Shown here piece after piece: positions 6,655 to 46,696 of a stretch of DNA of 52,995 nt (position 1 is the stretch's first letter; each line of letters begins with the position of its first letter). This DNA is from Planctomycetota bacterium (lineage in GTDB: Bacteria > Planctomycetota > UBA8742 > UBA2392): contig JAGQRI010000023.1 in assembly GCA_020425515.1 (NCBI GenBank), positions 4,467-57,461 on the forward strand. The letters are read 5' to 3'. The position numbers were made by a program, and so were the translations under genes. A model generated the notes under the pieces. That model made no database searches. It saw nothing but the letters and a program-made list of their open reading frames with translations, and had not been told where the DNA came from.

Positions 6655-7971
6655 CTACTTGTAGATCTCTTGCAGCAACAACTCGCCGGCGCGGAGCAGT
6701 TTCTGGTCCATGCTGCTGGCGGCCAGAGGTAGCAGGTTGGCGCGGGTGTCCTTGCGGTACTGGTCGATGCGATCCTTGCTGCGCCCCGAGTTATCGAGCG
6801 TTCGCAGGTTGTGAATGCGGTCGCACAGTTTGACGGCGCGCACCCAGCCGGGCGCGTTGCGCAGCCCCTGGTAGTAGCGCTGCAGGCCCATGTCCTTGGG
6901 CGAGCCGTCGCGCTTGTACATCTTGGTGAGCAGCACTACCGCCCCGGACACGCCCTCACCGAACTTGTCCGTCAGTTCCTGCGGCGTGGTTTGCATGTCG
7001 TCTTCGAGCACGTCGTGCAACAGCGCCGCGATCACCTCGTCGTGCTCGCGCAGCTTGACGTCTTCCACCGCAATCAGCGCGACTTCGAGTGGGTGTGTGG
7101 CGTAAGGCGTGCCTTCGTCGCGAACCTGGCCGGCGTGGGCGCGATACATCACCTCGAGCGCCCGCGTGACGTCGTGGTGCAGCCCCGGCTCGAGCTGTTG
7201 AAACAGGCGGGCTTCCAGCGGCTCGCATTCAGCGGGGCGCGTGATTTTCACTTCGGGCGTTGCGGTCTCGGTTTCGTCTTCGTTGTCGCCGCGGTGACGG
7301 TCATCCATTACGCGGCGCAGGTCCTCGAAGCTGATTTCCTTCTCGACCATCAGCACCATCAGGTGAAAAACCAGGTCGCACATCTCGCCGACGAGGTCGC
7401 TGCGGCTCTCGCTCTTGGCCGCGACGATGGTTTCGGTCGCTTCCTCGCCGAGCTTCTTGAGGATCTTGTTGATGCCTTTCTTGAACAGGTAACTGCTGTA
7501 GCTGCCCTCCGGCAGGGTGTCCTTGCGTTCCTGCAGCAGGGTGCGCACGTCGTCCATCAATGCGCCGAGCTGCGCCCCCCACCCCTGCGCGGCTTGTGGA
7601 GCGTCCTCGATTTCACTGAGCACGGCCTTGTTCTTGAACACGGTCTTGAAGAAGCAGTCAGCCTCTCCGGTGTGGCAGGCCGGACCTTCCGGCAGCACGC
7701 GGGCGACCAGGGCGTCGCCGTCACAGTCCAGCTTCAACTCGGCGACGCGCATGATGTTGCCGCTGGTCTCGCCCTTCACCCAGAGCTGTTTGCGGCTGCG
7801 CGACCAGAATGTCACCAGGCCGGTTTCGAGGGTCTTCCTGAAGGCCTCCGCGTTCATCCAGGCGAGCGTCAGCACCGTGCCGTCGCGGGCGTCCTGCATG
7901 ACGCAGGGCATCAGCCCATTGCTGTCGAAACGCAATCCGTCGATCGGCTGGACTTCGGTAAATTCGCTCAT
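6655..7971 (-). CDS. hisIE: Three-domain fusion: phosphoribosyl-AMP cyclohydrolase (HisI), phosphoribosyl-ATP pyrophosphatase (HisE) and a SpoT/RelA/Mesh1-type HD hydrolase domain
   Basis: The start is ATG at 7971, sharing ATGA with the hisF stop; the track's 41-aa extension is rejected. HisI motifs: [29 protein letters not shown]. HisE motifs: [32 protein letters not shown]. Residues about 251-438 carry [31 protein letters not shown] and [13 protein letters not shown], the RelA/SpoT hydrolase signature. Confidence 0.85.
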
Positions 7972-8741
7972 GTTGCCGCTACCTCCGGCGGGCGTATGTT
8001 GATGCCGCGCTCGCGCAAGTACTGCTTCGCCTCGCCCACCGTGTGTTGACCGAAGTGGAAAATGCCGGCTGCCAGTACCGCGGCCGCCCCGCACTCAAGC
8101 CCCTCGGCCAGATGCTCCAGTTTACCAACGCCGCCGGAAGCTATCACCGGGACGGCAGCGGCCTGCGCCGCCTGTTTTGTGAGGTCGAGCTCGAAGCCCT
8201 TGCCGGTGCCGTCGCGATCCATACTGGTCAGCAGGATCTCGCCCGCGCCGAGCTGAACGCCTTGTTTGATCCACTCCAGCGCGTCCCTGCCCGTGTCTTC
8301 GCGCCCGCCTTTCACGTAGACGTGATAGCTGCCGTCTTCCTGTTTGCGGGCATCGACCGCGAGTACCACCGCCTGCTTGCCGAAGCGCTTGGCGCATTCG
8401 CGGATCAGTTCGGGATGGCTGACGGCCGCGCTGTTAATGGCGACCTTGTCCGCGCCGGCCCGCAACAGCCTCTCGAAGTCGTCGACGCTGCGAACGCCGC
8501 CGCCGATGGTGAAAGGGATGCTGAGCTCGAGTGCGCAGCGCCGGGCCAGCTCGACTGTGGTGTCGCGGTTGTCGCTGCTGGCCGTGATGTCGAGGAACAC
8601 CAGCTCGTCGGCTTCCTCAGCGTCGTACCGAAGCGCGCATTCAACGGGGTCGCCGGCGTCGCGCAGCCCGACGAAATTGACGCCCTTGACGACGCGACCG
8701 TCCTTCACGTCGAGGCAGACGATGATGCGTTTGGCAAGCAT
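7968..8741 (-). CDS. hisF: Imidazole glycerol phosphate synthase cyclase subunit
   Basis: [32 protein letters not shown] is a canonical HisF N-terminus, and [12 protein letters not shown] and ASGGVG are also present. The start at 8741 overlaps the upstream stop by 1 nt. The track's longer ORF is an Arg-rich extension. Confidence 0.95.
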
Positions 8742-9517
8742 CAGCCGCGCGCCGCGAGGCCTTCTTTGGCGGCCGCCACGGCTTCCTCGTAGGTGAACTC
8801 TTCCATCATCAGCGGTTTGCCTACAAGCACTCCGTGCACACCGCGCGTTGAGGCGACTTCCTTGATGTGCTCGAGCCTGGTTACGCCGCCTGTGACGATG
8901 ACGTCGGTCGAATCCGACGCGAACGACGAGGCCTCCCCGGCGCGCGGGCCGTGGCCGGTCGCGTCCGCGGTGACATCCTGGTAGATGAAGTGACGCACGC
9001 CTGCGTCCTGGATCGCGCCGGCAATGTCGGCGACGGTTGCCTTCGAGTCCTTGACCCACTCCTGGCTGACGACCCTTCCGTCCTTCACGTCAAGGAACAC
9101 AACAACGGCTTCCGCGTTGATTTCCAGGGCCTTGTGGATAAGCGAGGGGTCGTGCATGGCGGCGCTGCCAAAGGCCGCGCGGTTGACGCCGAGCTGCGTG
9201 ACGACCTTGAAGCTCTCGATGTCCCGGATGCCGCCGCTGAGCTGGACAGTCTCCTCAAACGTCTTGGCCATCTCGCCGACAACGGTCAGGTTGCGTTCGG
9301 CGCCTGCAAGCACGCTGCCGGAGTGCTCCGCCTGGCTGACGATGAACGGACCGTCGAGGTTGTAGATATGAATGGTCTTCGCGCCGGCATCGATGAACTT
9401 GCGGGCGAAACCCAGCGGCTCGACGCGGTTCGCGCGAGTGCCCATGCCGACAGATTCATAGCGCAGGGCCATGCCGCCGCGCAGCTCAATTGCCGGAATC
9501 ACCTGAAAGTCGCTCAT
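8741..9517 (-). CDS. Diverged HisA/HisF-family (beta/alpha)8-barrel paralogue of unknown function
   Basis: 258 aa. It shares MSDFxxxPAI(D/E)LRxG, NLDG, GGxR, FIYxD, (S/T)GGVxxLEH and GxxxGK with the adjacent HisA. It differs in having AIEL instead of AIDL, a roughly 30-aa insertion after NLDG, an LDVKDGRVV segment like HisF, and [10 protein letters not shown] instead of DIARDGMLNG. Confidence 0.8.
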
Positions 9518-9521
9518 ATCG

Positions 9522-10250
9522 TTATCCTCTCGCGGCCTGCAGTGCTTCTCTTACCGTAAATCTCCCCTCATACAACGCCTTGCCGATGATAAGGCCGTCA
9601 ATTCCGGCATCGGACTGCGCCGTCCGGGTGACATGTTCGAGTTCGCCGACGCCGCCTGACGCGATCACCTTCGCGCCGGTTTGGGCCAGCTCCGTGGCGC
9701 CCTGCAGGTCCGGGCCGTTCAGCATACCGTCGCGGGCGATATCTGTGTAAATGAAGCGTGAAACCCCCGCGTCGAGCATGCGTCTGGCCAGCTCCGCGGC
9801 GCTGACTTCGCTGGTTTCGACCCAGCCCTCAACGGCGACCATGCCGCCGCGCGCGTCGATGCCGACGGCAATCTTGTCACCGAAGTCCTTCGCAAGATCA
9901 GCAACCAGATCCGGGTTTCGCAGCGCCACGGTGCCGAGAACGACGCGCGAAACGCCGCGTTTGAACGCCTGCTCGACGTCGGCACGGGTACGCAGCCCGC
10001 CGCCGAATTCGACCGGGATGTCCACGCTGTTGCAGACAGCCCGCAGCACGGCGAGATTCTGCGAGGCCTCGCCGAAAGCACCATCAAGGTTGACCACATG
10101 CAGCCACTCTGCGCCTTGCCCGCCGAAATCGCGGGCGACGGCCGGGGCATCCTCGCCATAGACGGTTTGCGCGTCGGCGCGCCCTTGCTCGAGGCGCACG
10201 ACTTTCCCCTGTCGCAGGTCGATGGCCGGGTAGATGGTGAAGTCGCTCAT
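9522..10250 (-). CDS. hisA: ProFAR isomerase (1-(5-phosphoribosyl)-5-[(5-phosphoribosylamino)methylideneamino]imidazole-4-carboxamide isomerase)
   Basis: MSDFTIYPAIDLRQGKVVRLEQG, VVNLDGA, FGGGLRT, GIDARGG, IYTDIARDGMLNGP and ASGGVG are all present. The start at 10250 shares ATGA with the hisH stop. Confidence 0.9.
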   Translation of the reverse strand: MSDFTIYPAIDLRQGKVVRLEQGRADAQTVYGEDAPAVARDFGGQGAEWLHVVNLDGAFGEASQNLAVLRAVCNSVDIPVEFGGGLRTRADVEQAFKRGVSRVVLGTVALRNPDLVADLAKDFGDKIAVGIDARGGMVAVEGWVETSEVSAAELARRMLDAGVSRFIYTDIARDGMLNGPDLQGATELAQTGAKVIASGGVGELEHVTRTAQSDAGIDGLIIGKALYEGRFTVREALQAARG

Positions 10251-10849
10251 TGCTTCAGGAAGTTCTCCAGCACCTTGGCGCCGCAGCGCTGGCTTTTCTC
10301 CGGGTGGGCCTGGATGCCCCACAGGTTGCCGCGCCGTACCACACTGCAGAAGCGTTCTCCGTATTCGGTTTCGCCGATCACGTCGCCAGCTTCGGCGGGT
10401 ACGCAGACGAAGCTGTGCACGAAGTAGAAGTATGCCTCTTCGGGCAGGTCTTCAAAGAGCGGGTCGGACTGTTTGAACTCGATGCGGTTCCAGCCCATGT
10501 GAGGCAGGGGGTTGGAACCGGGTTGCAGTTCGCGCACGCGCCCGGGTATCAAGCCGAGCCCGGCTGTTTCTCCGTACTCCTCGCCTGTCTCGAACATCAG
10601 TTGCATGCCGAGGCATACGCCCAGTATGGGTTTGCCGGCGGTGGCGTGGTCGCGGATGGCGTCGGCCAGACCGCGTTCGTTTAAGGCTTTCATGCCCGCG
10701 GGGAAGCTGCCGACGCCGGGCAGTACCAGTTTGGCAGCCTCAGCTACCTGACCCGCCGTTGTCGCAACTTTGACTTCGCCCCCCGCACGTTCAAGGGCGC
10801 GAGAAATGCTGCCAAGGTTGCAGATGCCCGAATCAACTATCGTGACCAT
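10247..10849 (-). CDS. hisH: Imidazole glycerol phosphate synthase glutamine amidotransferase subunit
   Basis: 200 aa with LPGVGSF, GVCLGMQLMF (catalytic Cys) and a C-terminal HPEKS, giving the class I glutamine amidotransferase (GATase) triad layout. Confidence 0.95.
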   Translation of the reverse strand: MVTIVDSGICNLGSISRALERAGGEVKVATTAGQVAEAAKLVLPGVGSFPAGMKALNERGLADAIRDHATAGKPILGVCLGMQLMFETGEEYGETAGLGLIPGRVRELQPGSNPLPHMGWNRIEFKQSDPLFEDLPEEAYFYFVHSFVCVPAEAGDVIGETEYGERFCSVVRRGNLWGIQAHPEKSQRCGAKVLENFLKQ

Positions 10850-10854
10850 GATGA

Positions 10855-11448
10855 TTACAACACGCCCTTGGTACTCGGCACTCCCTTGCGCCTGGGGTCG
10901 TGGTCCAGTGCGTTGCGCAGGGCCTTCGTTACGGCCTTGAAGACGCCCTCGATGATGTGGTGGGTGTCGTCACCGCGCAGGACGTCGATGTGCAGGTTCA
11001 TCGGGAAGTGCGTGCTGAAGCTGCGCCAGAAATGCTCGACCATCTCCGTCGGCAGGCCCCCCACCTCTTCGCGCTTCATGTTGCCGAGTTCGCACACGAG
11101 GTACGGTCGCCCGCTGAGGTCGAGCGCGCAGCGGATCAACGCCTCGTCCATCGGGATCAATGCGCTGCCATAGCGGTTGACGCCGGCCTTGTCGCCCGCG
11201 GCCTGTTTGAAGCACTCGCCGATGGCGATGGCGATGTCTTCAACGCTGTGGTGCGCGTCCACTTCGAGGTCGCCTTTGCATTTCACGTTCAGGTTGAACA
11301 ACCCATGCTTGGTGAACAACTCGAGCATGTGGTTCAGGAAACCGATGCCGGTGTCAATCGCGTACGTCCCGTCCCCGTCGATGTTCAACTCGACGCTGAT
11401 CTCGGTTTCGCTGGTCTTGCGGCTGAATGTCGCTTCCCGCTTGCTCAT
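10855..11448 (-). CDS. hisB: Imidazoleglycerol-phosphate dehydratase (monofunctional, no phosphatase domain)
   Basis: The start is ATG at 11448 (ATGA overlap with the hisC stop), giving MSKREATFSRKTSETEISVELNIDG. Motifs HHSVEDIAIA and HHIIEGVFKA are present. At 197 aa it has no HAD N-domain. Confidence 0.95.
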   Translation of the reverse strand: MSKREATFSRKTSETEISVELNIDGDGTYAIDTGIGFLNHMLELFTKHGLFNLNVKCKGDLEVDAHHSVEDIAIAIGECFKQAAGDKAGVNRYGSALIPMDEALIRCALDLSGRPYLVCELGNMKREEVGGLPTEMVEHFWRSFSTHFPMNLHIDVLRGDDTHHIIEGVFKAVTKALRNALDHDPRRKGVPSTKGVL

Positions 11449-12521
11449 GCCACCACCGTGATTGCGTACTCCAGCGCCTTCAGGAACGCGTCGTTTTCTT
11501 CCGGCCGGCCGATGCTGACTCGCAGTGCCTTCGCCAGTCTCGGATAGTTCGAGACGTCGCGTACGAGCACGCCGCGGCTGACCATCGCCTTCCACAACTC
11601 GCGCGGGTCGCGGTTTGTCTCGAACAGTATGAAGTTTGCACGGCTCGGGTACACCTTGCAGCCCTTGTATTCGCGCAGGCGGCGGGCGACGCGCTCGCGC
11701 TCGCGCTTGATTTCGTCCACGCGCGATTTCAGCGTCACGGCGTTGTCGATGGCGGTCTCGACGGCGGCCATCGTGAAGATGTTCAAGTTGTACGGCAGCT
11801 TGGCGGCGCTGAAGATTGGTCGCGCCTCCGGGTGCGCAACCATGCAGCCGAAACGCAGCCCGGCCGTCGCCAGCGCTTTGCTGAACGTGCGCAGCACCAC
11901 CAGGTTGCGGCAGTTGCGCGTGAGCTCGATGGCCGTCTCGCCGTGGAACTCGAAGTAGGCCTCGTCGATCACCCAGAGCGCGCCGCTGGTGTTGACCAGG
12001 TGCTCCAGGTCGGTCGGGTCGATCACGCTGCCGGTCGGGTTGTTCGGCGTTGCCAGCACAACGACCGAAGCATCCTGCGAAGCCGTCTCAAGCGCCTCGG
12101 CATCGAACTGCAGCTCCTCATCGAGTCCTTCCACGGCGATGTCCGCGCCGAGCAGGTTCGCGAGCAGCTTGTAGACCGTGAACGTCGGCTGCGGAATCAC
12201 GACCTTGCGCCCGCGCTCGAGGGTGCTGACGAAGATCGCATACAGTAGCTCGTTGCTGCCGTTGCCGACCAGTACCTGCTCGGCGTCGGCGCCAATGTGG
12301 CTGGCGACCTTGGCGACGAACGCGTCCGGCTGGAACGGCGGATAGCGGTTCCAGGGCAGGTCGCGTACGCGCTCGAACACTTCCTGTTTCAGGGTTGCGG
12401 GCCAGTCCCAGGCGTTTTCGTTCTGGTTCAGCTTGATCTCGCAGTCGGGCACGTCGAGGCTGTACCCGCCGGCCAGGCCCGGGAGCTGCGTTTTGAAGTA
12501 CTTGAGCGTCGTGTTGTCCAT
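11445..12521 (-). CDS. hisC: Histidinol-phosphate aminotransferase
   Basis: 358 aa with LNQNENAWDWP, NPNNPTG and TFSKA (PLP lysine). It sits in the expected his operon position. Confidence 0.9.
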   Translation of the reverse strand: MDNTTLKYFKTQLPGLAGGYSLDVPDCEIKLNQNENAWDWPATLKQEVFERVRDLPWNRYPPFQPDAFVAKVASHIGADAEQVLVGNGSNELLYAIFVSTLERGRKVVIPQPTFTVYKLLANLLGADIAVEGLDEELQFDAEALETASQDASVVVLATPNNPTGSVIDPTDLEHLVNTSGALWVIDEAYFEFHGETAIELTRNCRNLVVLRTFSKALATAGLRFGCMVAHPEARPIFSAAKLPYNLNIFTMAAVETAIDNAVTLKSRVDEIKRERERVARRLREYKGCKVYPSRANFILFETNRDPRELWKAMVSRGVLVRDVSNYPRLAKALRVSIGRPEENDAFLKALEYAITVVA

Positions 12522-12524
12522 GCG

Positions 12525-13925
12525 CTACTTGAAGCGTTGTTCCACACTGCGGGCGTGCGCTTCAAGTTCCTCACTGCGTGCGAGTTTGACGGCCGCATCC
12601 TTGTTGGCTTCCAGCAGCTCCTTGCTGCCGCGGATTATGCTGACCTGGCGTACGAAATCGTTCACGCCCAGCGCGCTGGCCCAGCGTGCGCTGCCGGCCG
12701 TCGGCAGCACGTGGTTGGGGCCGGCGTTGTAGTCGCCGAACGCTTCCGGCGCGTACGGCCCGACGAAAATCGCGCCCGCATTGCGAAGCTGCTTGGCGTC
12801 GTTTTCGGCGTCGCTGGTCAGCACTTCGCAGTGTTCCGGCGCGATCGAGTCCGCGAAGCGAATCGCGAAGCCCTTGCTGGGCACCGTCAGGATGCCGCCG
12901 TAGTGCGCCAGCGAAGCCTCGACGATCTCCTTGCGCGGCAGGTCGGCGACCTGCTTCTCGACTTCGGCCTTCACCTTTTCCGCGGCCTCGGCGCTGTCGG
13001 TGATGCCGATGGCGGCCGCGTGCACGTCGTGCTCGGCCTGTGCAAGCATGTCGGCCGCGACGATGGCCGGGTCGGTCGAATCGTCGAACAGGACAACGAT
13101 TTCACTGGGCCCGGCAAAGCCGTCGATACCGACACGCCCGCTGAGCAACTGTTTCGCGATCGCGACGAAGATGTTGCCAGGGCCCACGATCTTGTCGACG
13201 CGCGCGATCTTTTCCGTGCCGATTGCCGCCGCCGCAACGGCCTGCGCGCCGCCGACGCGGAAGACTTCCTCGATGCCGAGGTGGTCGATCAGCGCGCACA
13301 GCAGTGGCGACTTTTCCAGGTTCTCCGGCGGGGTCAGCACGCAGATTTCCTCGACGCCAGCGGTCTGCGCCGCGACGGCCGTCATCATCAGCGTACTGGG
13401 GTAGGTTGCCGTGCCGCCGGGGACGTACAGAGCGACGCGCCTGAGCGGCTGCATGCGAACGCCGACCGAGCCGCCGTTGTCGTCGATCTGCCAGCTTTCG
13501 AGTTTTTGCTTCTCGTGAAACTTGCGCAGGCGCGGGAGGATCTCATCGGTGCAGTGCTTGAGCAGCGCTTCGTCAACGCCGTCGGCGCCCTTCATCAGGT
13601 CCAGCTTGTTGGCCTGGATGCGGTTGGTCGGCAGTTCCTCGCCGTCAAACAGGCGGGCGCACTGGCGTACCGCTTCGTCGCCCTGTTCACGCACGCGCTC
13701 GATCACGCGCTCGACAGTCGCCAGGGCGCTGTTGGGAAGCCCTTCGTAGAACGCCTCCGCGAACTGGATGAACTCGGTGTCGCCGGTGTCGCGGGCGCGT
13801 TGCATGAGTTCAGTCGGTTTGCCGCCCAGCGAGATGTCACCGCCCTCATTGCGCGATGCCAGGCGGCTCTGGAAGGCCTCGAATTCTTCCGATCCGATTT
13901 CAAACAGCTTCAGCGATTCGCTCAT
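12525..13925 (-). CDS. hisD: Histidinol dehydrogenase
   Basis: 466 aa with GPGNIFVA, EHD, AGPNHVLPT and operon context. The N-terminus is about 30 aa longer than I recall for the enteric enzyme. Confidence 0.95.
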   Translation of the reverse strand: MSESLKLFEIGSEEFEAFQSRLASRNEGGDISLGGKPTELMQRARDTGDTEFIQFAEAFYEGLPNSALATVERVIERVREQGDEAVRQCARLFDGEELPTNRIQANKLDLMKGADGVDEALLKHCTDEILPRLRKFHEKQKLESWQIDDNGGSVGVRMQPLRRVALYVPGGTATYPSTLMMTAVAAQTAGVEEICVLTPPENLEKSPLLCALIDHLGIEEVFRVGGAQAVAAAAIGTEKIARVDKIVGPGNIFVAIAKQLLSGRVGIDGFAGPSEIVVLFDDSTDPAIVAADMLAQAEHDVHAAAIGITDSAEAAEKVKAEVEKQVADLPRKEIVEASLAHYGGILTVPSKGFAIRFADSIAPEHCEVLTSDAENDAKQLRNAGAIFVGPYAPEAFGDYNAGPNHVLPTAGSARWASALGVNDFVRQVSIIRGSKELLEANKDAAVKLARSEELEAHARSVEQRFK

Positions 13926-14563
13926 GTTCTTGCCCCTTCGACTGCGGTTTTCAGATTCACCAACAAATCCCGCACTTCGGACAGTTTGGCGTACCAGGCT
14001 GCGCGGTTCACGGCCAGTCGTGCGCTGCAGTCGGCAATCTCCTCATGCACGACTAGCCCGTTTTCACGCAGTGTGGTGCCGGTTTCCACGATGTCCACTA
14101 TGTAATGCGACAGACCCAGCACCGCGCCGATTTCGACGCTGCCAGAAAGCTTGAACACGGTGCACGGGACGCCCTGCTTGCGGAAGTAGTGCTGTGCAAC
14201 CCGCGGGAATTTGCTCGCCACGCGAACGGGCGAAAGCAGGTTGTCGAGCTTGCGCTCGATTTCCGGTTTGCCGGCTACCACCATGCGGCATTTGCTGAAA
14301 CCGAGGTCCAGCGGCTCAAGCAAATCGGCGCCTACCTCCATTAACACATCCTTGCCGCTAATGCCCGCATCGGCTACGCCCTGTTCGATGTACAGCGGCG
14401 CGTCCACCGGTTTCACCAGCAGATACTCGACGCGCCCGCACTGGCTGGGCACGGTCAGCTTGCGGGTTTCGTTCAGCGATTCCGCGGGCGCGTATCCTGC
14501 GGCTTCCAGGAACGGAATCGCCTGTTTCATCATGCGGCCTGTAGGAAGGGCGACGCGCAGCAT
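13922..14563 (-). CDS. hisG: ATP phosphoribosyltransferase, short form (HisZ-dependent type)
   Basis: 213 aa, MLRVALPTGRMMKQAIPFLEAAGY, with no C-terminal regulatory domain. It is adjacent to hisZ and shares ATGA with the hisD start. Confidence 0.9.
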   Translation of the reverse strand: MLRVALPTGRMMKQAIPFLEAAGYAPAESLNETRKLTVPSQCGRVEYLLVKPVDAPLYIEQGVADAGISGKDVLMEVGADLLEPLDLGFSKCRMVVAGKPEIERKLDNLLSPVRVASKFPRVAQHYFRKQGVPCTVFKLSGSVEIGAVLGLSHYIVDIVETGTTLRENGLVVHEEIADCSARLAVNRAAWYAKLSEVRDLLVNLKTAVEGART

Positions 14564-15657
14564 CAGGCGCCTCCTTCCATTATCGCGGGTTTTCCCTGGG
14601 CGCGCAGGTCGTGAATTCGCTTGAGGGCTTCCGCGCCGTCGCCGGCTTTGACTGATTCGGACGAAGTACCCGTATAGTCGTCCCGCGAAGTTGCCTCCGC
14701 CAGCCTGGCCAGGTTGAAGCCGAACCCGACGGCCGGTACGTCCAGTTCGAACCGGTCGAACAGGCGATCGTAGCGTCCCCCGCCACCGAGGTCTTCGCCG
14801 ACCGCGTGGTGGTACACCTTGAACATGAATCCGCTGTAGTAGTCCGAGCGACGTACTTCGCCGAGATCGAGCAGCAGATTGCCGCGGACTCCGGCTTCGG
14901 TCAGCAGTGAATGCAACGACTCCAACTCGCCCAGTGCCGCTTGTGCCGCCGCGTTCAGGTTGAACTTGCGGGCGGACTCAAACACTTCCGGGCCGCCGGT
15001 CAGCAACGGCAGCGCGGCGAGTAACTCGGCCGTGTCCGAGTCGAGGCCTATGCGCTGCGCAAGCTGGCGGATGCGGCTGGGGTTCTTGTGATCGAGCGCT
15101 TCCAGCAGGCGACGCTCGGCGCGCCCTTGCTCGCCGAGCACGGCGTGGATGAATCCGGCGTGGCCGACCACGATGATGGCGTCGTCCGCCCCGACGGCCT
15201 GCAGGGATTCGCGCGCCATCATTACCACGGCCGCGTCGTACACAGGGCCGGGGGCATTTACCCATTCCAGCCCGCGCTGGGTCTGCTCGACGCGATGGCC
15301 ATGGCCGCTCGGCGCGAAGCGGTAAACGCGCCCTTCATAGCTTGCGCGAATCGGGCGGGCGTCCCGGCGCAGTTCCATGGCCAGTGCTTTCGCGGCAATC
15401 AGTGTGAAATCCGCGCGCAGAGTCAGTTGCCGGCCTTCGCGGTCAACCAGGTGGTACAGCTCGGTTTCGTCACCGGGCTCGCCAAGCCCCTCGAAGGTTT
15501 CGCCTGAGTCGAACGCAGGCAGGATGATCTCGGTGAAACCCCAGCCGCGGAACACGCCTGCAATCCGGTCGCTGATGAACTGGCGACGCGCGGCCTGCGG
15601 TCCGAACACGAGCTCGGTACCTGGCGGGAACGACAGTTGTTTTACGTCGCCTGACAT
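14563..15657 (-). CDS. hisZ: ATP phosphoribosyltransferase regulatory subunit (HisRS paralogue)
   Basis: 364 aa with a class II aaRS-like core (GFTEIILPAFD, RLCY-type region, GGGRYD). It has no anticodon-binding domain. Its stop overlaps the hisG start by 1 nt. Confidence 0.85.
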   Translation of the reverse strand: MSGDVKQLSFPPGTELVFGPQAARRQFISDRIAGVFRGWGFTEIILPAFDSGETFEGLGEPGDETELYHLVDREGRQLTLRADFTLIAAKALAMELRRDARPIRASYEGRVYRFAPSGHGHRVEQTQRGLEWVNAPGPVYDAAVVMMARESLQAVGADDAIIVVGHAGFIHAVLGEQGRAERRLLEALDHKNPSRIRQLAQRIGLDSDTAELLAALPLLTGGPEVFESARKFNLNAAAQAALGELESLHSLLTEAGVRGNLLLDLGEVRRSDYYSGFMFKVYHHAVGEDLGGGGRYDRLFDRFELDVPAVGFGFNLARLAEATSRDDYTGTSSESVKAGDGAEALKRIHDLRAQGKPAIMEGGA

Positions 15658-15690: not shown

Positions 15691-16146
15691 TTACCGCAGC
15701 GAGAACAGGTATTCAACCAGAGCGCGCAGGTCGTCGTCGGTGATCCGGTTGAACGGCGTCATGAAAGTGCCCCGGTATTCGTCCGTTCCGGCGAAGCTGC
15801 CCGGGTACTTGCGCGGGTCCTTGATGTGCTTGACCGTCCAGCGCCTCGCCTTCAACGGGTCGTGATCCTGGTGCTCGAGGGCGCGGTCCGCGTACCCGCC
15901 CAGCGGCGGCCCGGCCAGTCCCGAGCGATCCGGGCCGGTGCTGTGGCACTGCTCGCACGTCAGGCCCTTGAACAGTTTCTGGCCCCGGTCGATGAGCTCA
16001 TTGGCCTCTTCCGCAGGCGGCACGTCGGGGTATGCGGCCTTGGCGGAAGCCTCCGGGTCCTGGGTGACGCCGGGGATGTTCGCGTTGTCCGTGCAGGCGG
16101 CGAGCAGCAGTGCACTCAACAGGAACGGCAGTACTCGGGCAGCCAT
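15691..16146 (-). CDS. Small c-type cytochrome, lipoprotein
   Basis: Signal plus lipobox MAARVLPFLLSALLLAAC, a single CEQCH haem-binding motif and a distal Met candidate in TFMTPF. The start overlaps the ABC ATPase stop by 1 nt. Confidence 0.8.
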   Translation of the reverse strand: MAARVLPFLLSALLLAACTDNANIPGVTQDPEASAKAAYPDVPPAEEANELIDRGQKLFKGLTCEQCHSTGPDRSGLAGPPLGGYADRALEHQDHDPLKARRWTVKHIKDPRKYPGSFAGTDEYRGTFMTPFNRITDDDLRALVEYLFSLR

Positions 16147-16868
16147 CAGCTTGCTTCTTTCGTCTCTACGTCGGCCGGCTTCGCGGCGGCGCTTTCGATG
16201 CGCTCGATCTGGCCATCCTTGTAATGGACGATGCGATCCGCACGCTCGGCCACGCCGCGCTCGTGCGTGACCACGATCAGCGTCATGCCGAGTTCCCTCT
16301 GCAGCTTCTCAAACAGGTCGAGCAGGATCGCTTCGCTTTCGCTGTCCACGTTGCCGGTCGGCTCGTCCGCAAGCAGAACGCGCGGGCGATTCACGATTGC
16401 CCTCGCGATGGCCGCGCGCTGGCGTTCGCCGCCGCTGACCTTGGCCGGCGTGTGGGAAATGCGGTGTTCGAGGCCGACCTGCTTCAACGCTTCGTGAGCA
16501 AGCATCTGCGCGTCCGGCTTGCCCTGGATGGGCAGCGCGACGTTGTCGATCAGCGTGAGGTGCGGCAGCAGGTAGTGCAACTGGAACACAAAGCCGATTT
16601 CCTCGCGCCGGAACCGTGCGAGGTTCTGGATGCGCGTCGTGTCCTGGCCGTGGATCAGGATGCGCCCCTTGTCTGGGCGATCGAGCGTTCCCACGAGGTT
16701 CATCAAGGTTGACTTGCCGCTGCCGGACTTGCCCATGATGGCGAGCATTTCGCCCTCGGCGACGCTCAGGTCGATGCCGCGCACGGCCTCGATCCCGCCG
16801 GGATACGTTTTGTACAGTCCTTCGATCAGGACCGCGGGTGCGTTGCCGGATGTTTCCGCGTCAAGCAT
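16146..16868 (-). CDS. ABC transporter ATP-binding protein (LolD/MacB/FtsE-like subfamily)
   Basis: I prefer the ATG at 16868 (MLDAETSGNAPAVLIEGLYKTY). Walker A GKSGSGKST, signature VSGGERQR and Walker B LLADEPT are present. The track ORF continues to 17858, but that part is Arg/Gly-rich antisense of a better plus-strand gene. Confidence 0.9.
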   Translation of the reverse strand: MLDAETSGNAPAVLIEGLYKTYPGGIEAVRGIDLSVAEGEMLAIMGKSGSGKSTLMNLVGTLDRPDKGRILIHGQDTTRIQNLARFRREEIGFVFQLHYLLPHLTLIDNVALPIQGKPDAQMLAHEALKQVGLEHRISHTPAKVSGGERQRAAIARAIVNRPRVLLADEPTGNVDSESEAILLDLFEKLQRELGMTLIVVTHERGVAERADRIVHYKDGQIERIESAAAKPADVETKEAS

Positions 16869-17018: not shown

Positions 17019-18233
17019 ATGGCCACACAAGAAGTGATTCTGCGTCCAGGTGACTCGATCTCTGTACGCCTGGAAGTACCGGGACAGCCCCTGCGGCTTG
17101 ACATGAGCCTTACCCCCGAAGGCATGGCGGTCTCCGGCCCCGTGCCGTTGGGTGCCCCGACGGTGTTCGGGGGCGTATCTCCTGTTGATGAAGCCCAGTC
17201 TCCGGTTGACCTCACGGCGGAGTTCGAGGCGGCGGATGCGCCGGTCGAGCCGCCGCCCGCGCAGAAAATCGAAAGCCTTGCGGCTGTCGAGCCTTTTGAC
17301 AGTCCGATGGAGGCCGTGGACATTCCCTTCGAAGACATCACGGACGACACGGTCGGGGCAGAGGAAGCCACGGTTACGGAAGACGCGACGGCGACCGATG
17401 ACATCGACTTTGACCTCGGTGATTTCGACGGTGAAGAGGACGTCTCGGTTGGCGTGGACATCCCCGGTGACGACGACCTTGGCGGCGGGATCGACATCCC
17501 CGAAGACGACGACCTTGAAGGCGGCGACATCAGCATCGACATTCCGGACGATGACGCCGTGGATATTCCCGGCGACGACGACGTAGGCTTCAGTGCCGAC
17601 GCCATGACGATGGTTCCGCCGACTGGCGGCCGACCTGAACCGGCGCTTTCCATTGAAGACGATGATGCAGGAATGTCGCTCGAAGACATGACCCTGGACG
17701 AGGAGCCGGAATTGGACGCAGAAGGCAATCCCAAAGAGAAATTCCAACCCAACGAAGACGACACGCTCCCGGTCTGGACAGGCAAGGCGCGCACCTACCG
17801 TGACCCGGAAATCGAGAAGAAGAAGAAGGAAACGGCGAAACTTAACAAGGCAGGTCAACCGGCGGCCAAAGGCAAGCCCCCGGCGGGCAAACCCCTTCCG
17901 GGCAAGGCCAAGCTGCCGGGCGCTGCCAAGAAGCCGGTTACCAAGCAGATGAAGAAGCCGACCGGTGGCGTTGCGCCCGCCGCCGCAAAACCGGCGGCAG
18001 GCGGAGGCGGCAACTTCACCGTGTTTCTGTCGCCCCCCAAGGGCGCCGACAAGAAGCAGGCCGCGGCCGAAATCATCGCCGAAATCCAGGGCATCGACAT
18101 GAACTCGGCGGTCGCCCTTGCCGGCAAAATGATCGTTCCGGTGGTGAAAGGCGTCAGCGAGTCGGAAGCCCAGGGCGTTCGCGACCGTTTCAAGGATGCA
18201 GGTCTGTCCTGCCGTATCACCCAGAAGCGCTGA
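17019..18233 (+). CDS. Charge-segregated protein: short N-terminal domain, long acidic repeat region, Lys/Pro/Ala-rich basic region, and a C-terminal ribosomal L7/L12-CTD-like domain
   Basis: 404 aa. The last 70 aa or so (FTVFLSPPKGADKKQAAAEIIAEIQGIDMNSAVALAGKMIVPVVKGVSESEAQGVRDRFKDAGLSCRI) align by eye with the L7/L12 C-terminal domain ([66 protein letters not shown]). Confidence 0.7.
   Translation: MATQEVILRPGDSISVRLEVPGQPLRLDMSLTPEGMAVSGPVPLGAPTVFGGVSPVDEAQSPVDLTAEFEAADAPVEPPPAQKIESLAAVEPFDSPMEAVDIPFEDITDDTVGAEEATVTEDATATDDIDFDLGDFDGEEDVSVGVDIPGDDDLGGGIDIPEDDDLEGGDISIDIPDDDAVDIPGDDDVGFSADAMTMVPPTGGRPEPALSIEDDDAGMSLEDMTLDEEPELDAEGNPKEKFQPNEDDTLPVWTGKARTYRDPEIEKKKKETAKLNKAGQPAAKGKPPAGKPLPGKAKLPGAAKKPVTKQMKKPTGGVAPAAAKPAAGGGGNFTVFLSPPKGADKKQAAAEIIAEIQGIDMNSAVALAGKMIVPVVKGVSESEAQGVRDRFKDAGLSCRITQKR
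17457..17587 (+). repeat. In-frame tandem repeats encoding four DIPxDDD units
   Basis: gacatccccggtgacgacgaccttggcggcggg and gacatccccgaagacgacgaccttgaaggcggc are followed by two shorter copies. They are translated as DIPGDDDLGGGI, DIPEDDDLEGGDISI, DIPDDDAV and DIPGDDDVG. Confidence 0.85.
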
Positions 18234-19425: not shown

Positions 19426-21378
19426 TTGGCCAAGTTGAAAATCCAGTCCAATGAACAGGGACCCGCCCTCAGCGGCGGCGCGATGTTCGTCAAGCTGATG
19501 GGGCTCGTGGTCATGAGCGCCGCCCTGCTTGGCGTGATCTCCATGCTGTTGACCTACTCATGGGAAGACAAGCGCGAGTCGTGGGACTGGAAGCCGGAAG
19601 ACATCCGCACCAATTTCGATCCGCTGATGACCAGCGACCAGATCAAGAAGCTCTTTGCCGACAAACGCCGGGAATGGATGACCGGCAACCCCATCAATGA
19701 ACTTCCCAAGGGCGTCGAAGGCGAAGACGACCCGCGCAAGGCCAACAAGCCCGCCGACAACGGGACGCCGCTGCCGTTCGGCAACGATGGCGATACCGGC
19801 GAGCTGCCCCCGCCCGGCGAATTCAAACCCCGCCACGGGAAGGACCAGCGCGAGGAAACCAGGCTCGATGAAGCGCGCGAGCTGAAGCTGGCCGAGAAAC
19901 TCAGCGACAAACGGCAGTTCGAACTGCTTGAGGAAACCCAGAACCTGCTGGACTGGATTCCGTTCGAGGATTCCTCGCGCGAAAAAACCATGAACGAGTT
20001 CGCGGCCTTCAAGGGCCGCCAGGCGCCCACCAACGAACAACTCGCCCTGCAGATCATGAGCAAACTGCCGGCGCCCGGCGCGGCGGATTACGCAACCTTC
20101 ACTGGCCGAACCGAGAAAGATGGCTGGTACTGGGGCAAGAGCCAGGGTGCAATCGACAAGTACCGAGGCCACGTGTTCGAGGTCGAAGGGCGGCTGTTTG
20201 ATCTTTACGAGATAAAGCCTGACGAGCCGATCGTGCTTCAGGATGGCACGAAAGTCGACTCCTACTATGAGGGTGTCGTTGCCTTACTCGGGCCGGGAAT
20301 GGCACGCGGTGACCACGCCGTCGAGCAGCGGGTGGTTGAATTCCAGTCGCTGACCGTGCCGGACGGCCTCGCAGAGTACGTCAACACCAGCGGCCACGTC
20401 TCACACGACGACAAGCTTGTGACCGCCAAGGTCATGGTGAAGTTTCACGGCGCGTTTCTGCGGCGCTGGATATACAGCCGCGAAGTCGCCCCCTACAGCA
20501 CGGCGGCCAAGCAGGTTCTGTCGCAGGATCACTCGCCGTTGCTGTTGACGCCCGACCTCGCGCAGTCCGCGACCGAGCCCTACCAGCTCACCGACAAGCT
20601 GCTGCAACAGGTAAAGGATGCGCTTCGGGACGACCCGGTGTTCCTCGAAACCGAGGCCGCGTACTACACCATGCTGGCCAAGGCCAACGACCCGGATGAC
20701 TCGATCGAGGTCAACGACGAGATCGGCTACTTCGACCTCGCAGGCGAGGAGACCGGCCCCCGCTACCGCGGCCAGGGAATCCGCGTCGTCGGCATGGTGG
20801 GTGACAACTACGCGCCGGTAATTCTTCCACCGAACGTCAGCGGGCTGCGGCGCGTGTTCCGCACCCTGGTGCTGGACGACACGGCTAACCTGCAGTCGCC
20901 CAAGCGCTACATGGTCGACATGATCGAGCCCCCCACCGGGCTGGAACCTCGTGCGATCGTGGACTTCAGCGCGCGCTACTACCGCAATGTGTTCGAGACC
21001 GAAAGCGCGAGCTCAACGGTTCGCCCGCTGCTGATCGTGCGCCGGGTGGAAGGACTGAAACAAAAGGGTGCGGGGCACGAGTGGATCTACGCGCTGCTGG
21101 GCGTGATAGGCATCCTTCTCCTGATGGCAGTGCTGACCTGGTTCATCCTCAGTGAACGCCGCGAACGCGCCCGGTTTGAGGCCAACACGCTCGAGCTGTC
21201 CCGCAGCCGAGTCAAGAAGGGCGCGCTGAAACTCAAGCCGCTGCCGGGCGGCAAGGGCAGCCCGCCGGAGGCCAAGCCGGACCCGGAAGACGCAGGCAGC
21301 AAGGGCGCAGAAACGCCCGCCAGTTCCGATCCGGAAGGCAAATCCGAAGCAGACGACGGTAGCGCCGACAAGGAATAG
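19426..21378 (+). CDS. Large hypothetical membrane protein with two TM helices flanking a roughly 520-aa domain
   Basis: TTG start 7 nt after AAGGAG. TM1 is FVKLMGLVVMSAALLGVISMLLTY and TM2 is WIYALLGVIGILLLMAVLTWFIL. It has a charged C-terminal tail and no motif I recognise. Confidence 0.75.
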   Translation: MAKLKIQSNEQGPALSGGAMFVKLMGLVVMSAALLGVISMLLTYSWEDKRESWDWKPEDIRTNFDPLMTSDQIKKLFADKRREWMTGNPINELPKGVEGEDDPRKANKPADNGTPLPFGNDGDTGELPPPGEFKPRHGKDQREETRLDEARELKLAEKLSDKRQFELLEETQNLLDWIPFEDSSREKTMNEFAAFKGRQAPTNEQLALQIMSKLPAPGAADYATFTGRTEKDGWYWGKSQGAIDKYRGHVFEVEGRLFDLYEIKPDEPIVLQDGTKVDSYYEGVVALLGPGMARGDHAVEQRVVEFQSLTVPDGLAEYVNTSGHVSHDDKLVTAKVMVKFHGAFLRRWIYSREVAPYSTAAKQVLSQDHSPLLLTPDLAQSATEPYQLTDKLLQQVKDALRDDPVFLETEAAYYTMLAKANDPDDSIEVNDEIGYFDLAGEETGPRYRGQGIRVVGMVGDNYAPVILPPNVSGLRRVFRTLVLDDTANLQSPKRYMVDMIEPPTGLEPRAIVDFSARYYRNVFETESASSTVRPLLIVRRVEGLKQKGAGHEWIYALLGVIGILLLMAVLTWFILSERRERARFEANTLELSRSRVKKGALKLKPLPGGKGSPPEAKPDPEDAGSKGAETPASSDPEGKSEADDGSADKE

Positions 21379-23653: not shown

Positions 23654-25492
23654 ATGGAACCGTTTCTCGAAGCCTTGAAGCATCGCGTCCTCGTCGGCGA
23701 CGGGGCGTACGGCACCCTGCTGGCCAGCCGAGGACTGGTGGCGGGCGGCGGCGTCGGGCCGGTGCTGAACCTGGCCAAGCCGAACTTTGTGCTGTCGGCG
23801 CACCAGGAGTACCTCGACGCGGGCTCCGATGTGATCGAGACCAACACCTTCGGCGCTGATCCACTGGCCCTCTCGGCGGCCGAAGCAAACGCTACCAGCT
23901 TCGATGTCTGCAAGGCCGGCGCCGAACTAGCCCGCCAGGCCGCCGGCGACAGGGCGTACGTGCTGGGTGCAATCGGCCCGCTGTTTCGCTCGAGCGCCAA
24001 GCTGACTGACGATGAGCGCCAGGATTGCATCGCCCAGCAAGTAAAAGGCCTGGTTGAGGGCGGCGTCGACGCAATCCTGCTGGAGACGTTCCCCGACCTG
24101 TCCGAGCTGTTGTTCGCAATCGGGGCTGTGCGCGGCGCGGCGCCCGACATCCCGCTGATCGCGCAGATGGCGTTTACGCTTGCCGGCACAACCACCACGG
24201 GTACGTCGCCGGAGCGCATGATCAAGGCTTTGGCAGACCAGCCGGTCGACGTGGTCGGCGCCAACTGCGGCGGCGGCGAGAGCGCGGCCATCGAGGTTTG
24301 CAGGCGCATGGTTGAACTGACCGAACGCCCGATCAGCATCTTCCCGAACCGCGGTCTCGCCGATTTCGACGATCACGGGCGCCCGATCTACATTGAAAGC
24401 AGCGACTACTTCGCACGCAGCGCGCGTCGTCTGGCGGACCTCGGCGCCAACCTGATCGGCGGCTGCTGCGGCACAACGCCCGAGGATATCCGCAAGCTCA
24501 AGGCGCAGATCAACGCCCGCAAGCCCAGCATGCGCCAGTTGCGTGTGCCCGCCGAGCCCGCGAAAACCGAGGAAGCCCACGAGCCGGTCAAGGTCCAGCC
24601 GACGCTCGAGGCCGACCTGCGCGAGCGCCGCGTGGTCGTCGCCGAGGTAGACCCACCCCGTGGTATCGATGCATCGCGCGAAATTGACGGCGCGCAGCAG
24701 ATTGTCGAGGCCGGGGCGGAAGCGCTGACGGTGGCCGACAACCCGCTGTCGATCATGCGCATGAGCAATCTTGCGTTCGCCGCCCTGCTGATGCAGCGCA
24801 TGGACGCGCGCATCGTGCTGCACATAGCCTGTCGCGATCGAAGCCTGATTGGCACTCAGTCGCACCTGCTGGGCGCCTATGCGATGGGGATCTCCAACAT
24901 CCTCGCGGTGACGGGGGATCCTGTCGCGACGCAGGCGTACAAGGGCAGCAGCGGCGTCTTCGACATGGCCAGCCACAAGCTGATCGAGATGATCTCGCGC
25001 TTCAACCAGGGCGAGTTCGCGACCGGCAAGGACGGCGGCGCCCGCACGAATTTCTTCGTCGGCGGGGCGTTCAACTGCGCGTCGCGCAAACTTGAAAACG
25101 AAGTCAAACGCTTCCAGCGTAAGGTGCAGGCCGGCGCGCGCTACATCATGACCCAACCGGTCTTTGACATCGAAAAGGCGCGCGAAGTTACCGCCGCCGT
25201 GCGCCCGCTCGGCGTGCCGTTGATCCTTGGCGTGATGCCTTTGGTCAGCGAGCGGAATGCCGAGTTCCTGCACCACGAGGTGCCCGGCATCGACGTGCCG
25301 GAAAGCATCCGCGAGCGCATGAAGGGCAAGCGTGGCGAAAAAGGCCGCGCGGAAGGCGTCGCGATCAGCAAGGAACTGATGGAAGAGATCGCGCCCGAGG
25401 TGCAGGGTTACTACCTGATCACGCCGATGAACCGCTACGAAATGATCGCCGAGCTTACGCGGCACGCACGCAGCTTCGCCAACGTTCCGTAA
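23654..25492 (+). CDS. Bifunctional homocysteine S-methyltransferase / 5,10-methylenetetrahydrofolate reductase (YitJ-like fusion)
   Basis: The N-half has the Hcy-binding domain pattern (ETNTFGA, GANCGGG, IGGCCGTTPEDI). The C-half is MTHFR-like (LTVADNP, ACRDR, ILAVTGDP, QPVFD). Confidence 0.9.
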   Translation: MEPFLEALKHRVLVGDGAYGTLLASRGLVAGGGVGPVLNLAKPNFVLSAHQEYLDAGSDVIETNTFGADPLALSAAEANATSFDVCKAGAELARQAAGDRAYVLGAIGPLFRSSAKLTDDERQDCIAQQVKGLVEGGVDAILLETFPDLSELLFAIGAVRGAAPDIPLIAQMAFTLAGTTTTGTSPERMIKALADQPVDVVGANCGGGESAAIEVCRRMVELTERPISIFPNRGLADFDDHGRPIYIESSDYFARSARRLADLGANLIGGCCGTTPEDIRKLKAQINARKPSMRQLRVPAEPAKTEEAHEPVKVQPTLEADLRERRVVVAEVDPPRGIDASREIDGAQQIVEAGAEALTVADNPLSIMRMSNLAFAALLMQRMDARIVLHIACRDRSLIGTQSHLLGAYAMGISNILAVTGDPVATQAYKGSSGVFDMASHKLIEMISRFNQGEFATGKDGGARTNFFVGGAFNCASRKLENEVKRFQRKVQAGARYIMTQPVFDIEKAREVTAAVRPLGVPLILGVMPLVSERNAEFLHHEVPGIDVPESIRERMKGKRGEKGRAEGVAISKELMEEIAPEVQGYYLITPMNRYEMIAELTRHARSFANVP

Positions 25493-37330: not shown

Positions 37331-37373
37331 AGGACGATAAACAGGTATCTGATTGCGGATTCGGGACAAAACC

Positions 37374-46578: not shown

Positions 46579-46696
46579 GTACGCGCCCGTCCCGGAGTTC
46601 AAGGCCTGCGCTTAGGGCGTGCTATGGACTCTTTTCCGCACCATGTCTGGTCCTGTCATCCGGTTCGCATCCGGTATGATGGTTTCCGAGGACCGG

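Follow-up and report, generated by a model that had tools for sequence, protein, structure and literature searches.

The last gene of a histidine biosynthesis (his) operon in an uncultured planctomycete encodes an enzyme in which the bifunctional HisIE protein continues, in frame, into a hydrolase module of the RelA/SpoT type. This gene, hereafter hisIE::HD, lies in a 52,995-nucleotide stretch (the window) of contig JAGQRI010000023.1, positions 4,467 to 57,461, from the Planctomycetota assembly GCA_020425515.1. We find that the HisI-HisE-HD fusion is genuine, rare and confined to one clade of uncultured Planctomycetota, and that its HD module, linked to his genes in three distinct ways, has co-evolved with HisA2, a diverged paralogue of HisA. 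By analogy with the ends of other his operons, the HD module may be the histidinol-phosphate phosphatase (HolPase) that the pathway is otherwise missing here, a reading which we favor but hold tentatively. The combination is not a categorically new system; it is a clade-specific fusion of HisIE with a module similar to small alarmone hydrolases (SAHs), accompanied by a co-evolving HisA paralogue in the his operon.

The hisIE::HD gene is a single open reading frame (ORF) of 438 amino acids on the minus strand, with the ATG at position 7971 and the stop at 6655. It closes the minus-strand his operon, its start overlapping the stop codon of hisF (ATGA), and GGAGG is found 11 nt upstream of the start. 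A longer GTG-initiated ORF reaching up to 8094 was rejected as spurious, since the homologues begin with MS(D/E)FTE at the ATG, where a ribosome-binding site is present. Pfam recognizes three domains in the product, in agreement with the original prediction, which had been made from the letters of the window and a list of its ORFs; only the strand had been left unstated and the length of the extension underestimated (212 residues beyond HisE instead of about 190). The protein scores 239.6 bits against the NCBIfam HisIE equivalog NF002747 (cut-off 187), as expected of a bifunctional HisIE, and it also partly matches the N-terminal hydrolase part of the NCBIfam RelA/SpoT models. The Pfam scan revealed no synthetase domain in the fusion protein, which is also what had been predicted. 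Between HisE and the HD module lies an acidic linker (residues 229–243) that differs in both length and sequence among homologues. It is followed by a conserved segment, K(V/I)xRPxGCxxLExRL, in which P246, C249, L252 and E253 are invariant and which is kept in the stand-alone HD proteins described below. The full-length AlphaFold2 (AF2) model has a pTM of 0.49 and low confidence in the HisE part, so the packing of the domains against each other is not readable from it.

The fusion is not an isolated occurrence. A search of 5.8 billion proteins recovered 39 protein clusters with the same three domains (405–452 residues, 60–100% identity, full coverage), beyond which the next matches are ordinary HisIE proteins of at most 52% identity. 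Those clusters that carry a name are called only ‘HisIE’, and those named by NCBI come from metagenome-assembled genomes of Planctomycetota. Among 1.84 billion representatives at 50% identity, searched exhaustively with HMMER, one spans all three domains, and when a single genome was scanned for each GTDB species, the fusion was found at 22 loci, all from uncultured Planctomycetota. Contigs of near-complete genomes that carry it include JADJRK010000001.1 (4.12 Mb), JACKID010000001.1 (3.09 Mb) and JAOSKM010000001.1 (2.45 Mb). The literature search found no published description of HisIE joined to an alarmone hydrolase, of an HD-domain HolPase or of HisA paralogues in Planctomycetes, consistent with the earlier impression that the architecture had not been described.

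The original prediction had named a hidden stop or frameshift as the first thing to check in related genomes. The frame is unbroken in all 39 clusters and likewise in over 25 loci, both genomic and metagenomic, from independent assemblies (about 30 loci in all), which excludes an assembly error. The HD part is under purifying selection as strong as that acting on HisIE: comparisons with three or four relatives gave dN/dS of 0.07–0.16 for HD and 0.07–0.17 for HisIE, these being rough ratios because dS is near 1. Mean pairwise identity is similar across the HD core (0.70), HisI (0.75) and HisE (0.74), and falls to 0.32 in the linker. An artefact of assembly or gene calling, or a remnant in decay, is therefore a negligible possibility, being contradicted both by the shared frame and by dN/dS of about 0.1 together with invariant catalytic residues.

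By every computable criterion, namely, the HD_4 score (61.2 bits versus a gathering cut-off of 27.2), the presence of all six motifs and the all-helical SAH fold, the HD module is a member of the RelA/SpoT homologue (RSH) hydrolase superfamily. Using the definitions of the six RSH hydrolase motifs from PMC9293644, we assigned HD1 to R284, HD2 to H293, HD3 to H319-D320, HD4 to E323-D324, HD5 to D384-R385 and HD6 to N388. All four motif stretches quoted in the original prediction ([31 protein letters not shown] and [13 protein letters not shown]) are present in the translation, and the metal-binding and catalytic residues, whose loss would have spoken against it, are invariant in 28 aligned fusions. 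The AF2 model of the module (residues 250–438) has pLDDT of about 90–97. Foldseek matches it to human MESH1 in complex with NADPH (5vxa, TM 0.83) and to the SAH of Pseudomonas aeruginosa, PaSAH (6yvc, TM 0.82), with TM values to these two proteins in the range of 0.80–0.83. The best PDB matches by sequence are the hydrolase domains of Rel and SpoT (E-values from 1.8e-15 to 6e-12), and small alarmone hydrolases are also among the closest solved structures. Like SAH and MESH1, the module has the size of a single domain and lacks a synthetase. Unlike them, it forms the C-terminal part of a HisIE protein or is encoded beside a HisA paralogue, and it carries the RPxGCxxLE segment described above as well as two signatures of its own. 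One is an invariant loop, TKMYKRDG(T/S)PK, absent from the nearest outgroup SAHs; the other is a residue after the HD1 arginine that is usually acidic, whereas most hydrolases have lysine or arginine. The nearest stand-alone SAHs are at most 37–39% identical to the module and have no his context. No match to HAD, PHP or Inositol_P was obtained for the fusion with Pfam and NCBIfam, which places it outside the known HolPase families.

The operon has the order hisZ-hisG(short)-hisD-hisC-hisB(IGPD only)-hisH-hisA-HisA2-hisF-hisIE::HD and encodes all histidine steps except for HolPase. This step is filled by three unrelated folds in other organisms: the HAD-type HisB-N, the PHP-type HisJ/HisK and the IMPase-type HisN. 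We found no HAD, PHP or IMPase protein in the operon or among the scanned ORFs of the rest of the 53 kb. Thus, the earlier remark that HisB is monofunctional and that the operon encodes none of these phosphatases was confirmed at the level of the operon and its neighborhood. Likewise, tblastn gave no HisN or HisJ match in 546 kb of local sequence from the clade. A PHP gene near the L003 operon was considered as a HolPase and rejected, as it belongs to the 3',5'-bisphosphate nucleotidase/RNase AM type (196 bits) and not to HisJ. More generally, HolPase is the amino-acid biosynthesis step most often left unassigned in prototrophs, being of low confidence in 28% of 148 (PMC7311316); hence, further HolPase families are to be expected.

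Two comparisons bear on what might occupy this gap. In the closest HisIE-only relatives, P0041 and P0040 (loci L052 and L053), a gene for a HisJ-family PHP HolPase lies directly after hisIE; these genes score 108.5 and 93.3 bits against TIGR01856 (cut-off 90.2). The exhaustive search also led to a 470-residue HisI-HisE-IMPase protein (P0459) of an unrelated organism; its gene is present on 9 contigs and closes an operon hisZ-G-D-C-B-H-(hisA::hisF)-hisIE::HisN. The best model for its IMPase domain is HisN TIGR02067, with 219 bits, below the cut-off of 275 bits, followed by CysQ with 112 bits. The HD module shares this position with the known HolPases, C-terminal to HisIE or directly downstream of it, at the end of an operon otherwise lacking the step. 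Several of these proteins are unusual in other respects. In L057 (6499-9413), the 470-residue P0459 is preceded by another fusion, hisA::hisF (501 residues), so that two fused genes follow one another. In the HisIE protein P0040 (318 residues, L053 1468-2424), PRA-CH and PRA-PH are each listed twice, indicating a duplicated HisI, and a further HisIE protein, P0042 (298 residues), has two PRA-CH stretches.

The most informative feature of the locus, absent from the original prediction and explained by neither of its two readings, is the partnership of the HD module with HisA2. The HisA2 gene encodes a protein of 258 residues that lies between hisA and hisF. It belongs to the superfamily of HisA/HisF barrels, yet fails the membership tests for HisA (ProFAR isomerase): against the HisA equivalog TIGR00007, it scores 129.3 bits, with the cut-off being 228.95, whereas the adjoining canonical HisA scores 251.8. 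The HisA2 family comprises 47 clusters (48–100% identity), all from the same clade and named ‘hypothetical protein’ by NCBI; the next matches in the search are ordinary HisA proteins of at most 35% identity. Its AF2 model (pLDDT 92, pTM 0.90) is a (beta-alpha)8 barrel closest to Mycobacterium tuberculosis PriA (2y89, TM 0.83), and its sequence, too, scores higher against actinobacterial PriA (92 bits) than against enterobacterial HisA (about 50 bits). As in HisA and PriA, both phosphate-binding motifs, GG(V/I)RD and GGV...GK, are kept and the substrate-stacking tryptophan is invariant. By contrast, the position of the catalytic aspartate in beta1 of HisA is occupied by an invariant glutamate, the beta5 aspartate is replaced by N or S in four lineages (L014, L017-L019), the beta6 aspartate is replaced by N in L001, and there is a conserved insert of 12 residues ([14 protein letters not shown]). 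HisA2 has 49 invariant positions, including the active-site loop residues E11, R13, Y20, E21, T27, R28, R31, D55, R98, D99 and W154, and its dN/dS of 0.19–0.26 is similar to that of HisA.

Mapping with tblastn located HisA2 in about 31 of the 32 HD-family loci that reach far enough upstream. The association also holds in the reverse direction, since all five sufficiently long metagenome contigs found with a HisA2 profile carry the HD fusion. The exception is L020, in which the HisA2 slot is taken by an ORF of 137 residues (7896-8309), while the HD fusion is intact. By eye, this ORF is GxxExxY/PD-(D/E)XK-like and looks like a gene replacement in an otherwise intact his operon. The HD module also occurs as a separate gene. 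The genuinely stand-alone proteins are P0124-P0130, of about 200–210 residues and 53–60% identical, each encoded directly after HisA2; P0121-P0123 were rejected as fusion fragments starting inside HisE. In L060, HisA2 is directly upstream of the stand-alone HD gene, and in L061 the gene order is hisC-HisA2-HD. In L001 (on the same contig as L025), L002 and L024, HisA2 and stand-alone HD have no other his gene nearby. Genomes with the unfused pair include GCA_964652605.1 and the CAZNBU01 assembly. L001 is syntenic with the window: one flank contains MTHFR, DprA, DHQ synthase, FHA, ABC ATPase and cytochrome c genes, and the other an RND pump. Between these flanks, HisA2 and HD alone are kept, all nine canonical his genes having been lost. 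The unfused lineage nests within the fused diversity in the neighbor-joining trees of both HisA2 and HD, which are simple distance trees; fission of HD from HisIE thus looks derived. The stand-alone protein of L061 (P0128, 2027-2626) has a glycine in place of the metal-binding aspartate of HD5 (KLCGRLHN); this reflects a sequencing error, the Logan contig being of low coverage, or else an inactivated copy. The genes for the ABC ATPase and a small cytochrome c lie just upstream of hisZ in the window (15691-16826, minus strand), L003, L004 and L005, and they precede the HisA2-HD pair in L001, providing a syntenic anchor.

What does the module do? We consider that it could be the HolPase absent from the operon, because HolPase is the sole step without a gene there, because the HisJ gene directly follows hisIE in the closest HisIE-only relatives and because HisIE::HisN closes a his operon of the same gene order elsewhere, in an organism that is unrelated. 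The same is suggested by the hisC-HisA2-HD arrangement of L061, given that the product of HisC is histidinol phosphate. Purifying selection on HD comparable to that on HisIE, the invariance of the six motifs and the departures from SAHs in the YKRDG loop and after the HD1 arginine also speak for this reading. The solved complexes of MESH1 among the Foldseek matches include those with NADPH and PAPS, which shows that the MESH1-type fold accepts substrates other than ppGpp. Finally, a census from 2011 reported no RSH gene in the one Planctomycete genome surveyed (PMC3153485). Of the two readings offered originally, recruitment of the module as HolPase has gained from the position of HisJ, from HisIE::HisN and from hisC-HisA2-HD, whereas alarmone hydrolysis has been weakened by this census.

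Under the HolPase reading, an Mn2+-dependent phosphohydrolase with the RSH (SAH, MESH1-like) fold would have been recruited into histidine biosynthesis, where it would dephosphorylate L-histidinol phosphate and displace the PHP- or IMPase-type phosphatases found at the same operon position elsewhere. The choice of substrate is suggested by geometry: the imidazole-C-C-C-O-P path of histidinol phosphate equals the bond path base(N9)-C1'-C2'-C3'-O-P of a 3'-phosphorylated purine nucleotide, and therefore the HD1 arginine, which stacks on the base, and the HD6 asparagine could hold the imidazole. The Mn2+ ion and the Glu-Asp pair would then hydrolyze the phosphate ester. HisA2 might serve the module as a ligand-binding regulatory or specificity subunit, in the way that HisZ, a paralogue of HisRS, serves HisG; alternatively, it may be an enzyme (isomerase) for a coupled step. 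HisZ, which is catalytically inactive and regulates the short-form HisG, is a precedent for a paralogue acting as a non-catalytic partner within the same operon, and hisZ is present here. However, the comparison is an analogy only, as both the non-catalytic state of HisA2 and its binding to HD are conjectural. That the module founds a new HolPase family derived from the RSH/SAH fold and acts as one component of a two-component enzyme, in which HisA2 would confer specificity or regulation, is a more doubtful proposition than the phosphatase activity itself.

A number of points weigh against a HolPase. No HolPase is known to have an HD domain or to need a partner, so HisA2 is left unaccounted for; the module has a fold unrelated to the known HolPases, its activity is putative and, unlike any of them, it keeps a HisA-like companion. 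The positional parallels are analogies and not tests, and the absence of HisN, HisJ and HAD phosphatases holds for the local sequence only. HisN has been reported as general in the class Planctomycetia (PMC5516325). HisA2 and HD persist in L001, L002 and L024, a lineage whose syntenic locus lacks the nine canonical his genes, and a pure HolPase role fails if this lineage is a histidine auxotroph. In addition, the search of 5.8 billion proteins revealed no vertically inherited HisIE-only protein (>52% identity) from the unfused lineage. Finally, the base-binding arginine and asparagine are kept in the module and fit a nucleotide substrate equally well.

The last point leads to an alternative which we regard as unlikely, namely, that the module is still a hydrolase of nucleotide alarmones, (p)ppGpp, pGpp or (p)ppApp. 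Its tie to HisIE would make alarmone clearance track expression of the ATP- and PRPP-consuming his pathway, and HisA2 would be a sensor of ProFAR/PRFAR tuning the hydrolase. The invariance of all six RSH motifs, including the base-contacting arginine of HD1 and asparagine of HD6, is in line with this possibility, as are the top PDB matches to Rel and SpoT hydrolase domains and the SAH fold at TM 0.8. HisA2, with both phosphate-binding motifs but altered HisA catalytic residues, fits a ligand sensor, and loss of the canonical his genes from the locus has left the pair in place. However, there is no synthetase in the 53-kb window and, as noted above, no RSH gene was recorded in the surveyed Planctomycete genome (PMC3153485). 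The lack of his context in the nearest stand-alone SAHs indicates that the his linkage is derived and clade-specific, and a phosphatase of the pathway is what the comparison with the positions of HisJ and HisN suggests. The family's own invariant loop and the acidic residue at a position where most hydrolases have lysine or arginine also argue against an ordinary alarmone hydrolase. The active site itself does not help: in RelSeq, the base is read mainly via main-chain atoms and the 5' phosphates face the solvent (PMC13299517). The substrate of the HD module is for this reason not deducible from sequence, which does not discriminate between substrates, and we dropped deduction from the active-site residues.

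The conservation of HisA2 and HD as a pair suggests yet another possibility, which we consider improbable but somewhat less so than alarmone hydrolysis: the two proteins may act on a phosphoribosyl compound in a two-step reaction of their own, in which Amadori-type isomerization or ring opening is combined with dephosphorylation, as part of a side branch or repair route fed by histidine intermediates. The pair behaves as a conserved unit: about 31 of 32 loci have both genes, which are adjacent in three arrangements, and it is kept without the canonical his genes. Purifying selection on HisA2 like that on HisA, together with the active-site loop residues among its invariant positions, also favors this reading. 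HisA2 resembles PriA in both sequence and fold, and shifts of function are known for PriA and HisA paralogues (PMC13055916). On the other hand, the data name no candidate substrate or pathway for such a reaction, and the positions of the beta5 and beta6 catalytic aspartates of HisA vary in HisA2 (N/S in L014 and L017-L019; N in L001). The operon of L020 has an intact HD fusion without HisA2, and the parallels between HisIE and HolPases would be left as a coincidence.

If the HD module is indeed a HolPase, it would represent a fourth family of this enzyme, derived from the fold of stringent-response hydrolases, and would close a gap in the histidine pathway of a clade of uncultured Planctomycetota, improving predictions of auxotrophy. 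It would also be the first enzyme with an alarmone-hydrolase fold in amino-acid biosynthesis, and HisA2, if it is a subunit of this enzyme, would be the second HisZ-like recruitment of a paralogue in the his pathway. The RSH hydrolase scaffold could then leave nucleotide signalling for core metabolism, a shift hinted at in animals by MESH1, which is an NADPH phosphatase. If, instead, the module hydrolyzes alarmones, alarmone turnover would for the first time be seen hard-wired to histidine synthesis, and this in a phylum that, from one genome in 2011, was reported to be without RSH genes. Whichever of the two holds, the HisA paralogue that co-evolves with the module offers a clean, testable case of neofunctionalization of a (beta-alpha)8 barrel. 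The features of the fusion gene and of the operon are listed in Table 1.

Table 1. Coordinates of the hisIE::HD gene, its parts and the other genes of the his operon in the window
Feature	Position	Strand	Basis
Full hisIE::HD gene, 438 residues and stop	6655..7971	-	ORF, Pfam, homologues
HisI domain (PR-AMP cyclohydrolase), residues 36-108	7648..7866	-	Pfam PF01502 PRA-CH, E 3.9e-32
HisE domain (PR-ATP pyrophosphohydrolase), residues 141-226	7294..7551	-	Pfam PF01503 PRA-PH, E 1.9e-19
Variable acidic linker, residues 229-243	7243..7287	-	identity 0.32; AF2 pLDDT <50
Conserved pre-HD segment K(V/I)xRPxGCxxLExRL, residues 244-270	7162..7242	-	alignment
RSH/SAH-type HD_4 hydrolase core, residues 271-401	6769..7161	-	Pfam PF13328, 61.2 bits
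C-terminal helices of the HD module, residues 402-438, and stop codon	6655..6768	-	alignment, AF2
hisF	7968..8741	-	Pfam
HisA2, 258 residues, between hisA and hisF; diverged (beta-alpha)8 barrel resembling HisA/PriA	8741..9517	-	His_biosynth PF00977, E 2.5e-38
Canonical hisA	9522..10250	-	TIGR00007 251.8 bits, above cut-off
Upstream part of the operon, hisH to hisZ	10247..15657	-	Pfam
hisH	10247-10849	-	Pfam
hisB (IGPD only)	10855-11448	-	Pfam
hisC	11445-12521	-	Pfam
hisD	12525-13925	-	Pfam
hisG (short form)	13922-14563	-	Pfam
hisZ	14563-15657	-	Pfam

Several other ORFs of the window deserve mention. Four long ORFs have no Pfam match (17019-18233, plus strand; 19426-21378, plus strand; 33491-35101, minus strand; 37353-39395, plus strand), and some of them are perhaps not genes. 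In the first of these, the N-terminal half is extremely acidic and repetitive, and the C-terminal half is rich in lysine, alanine and proline. In the product of an ORF of 879 residues (46619-49258, plus strand), probably a secreted phosphatase, a purple-acid-phosphatase/metallophosphoesterase domain is accompanied by PKD and Ig-like repeats. Finally, a 612-residue ORF (23654-25492, plus strand) joins homocysteine S-methyltransferase to MTHFR, and the same fusion is found in L001.

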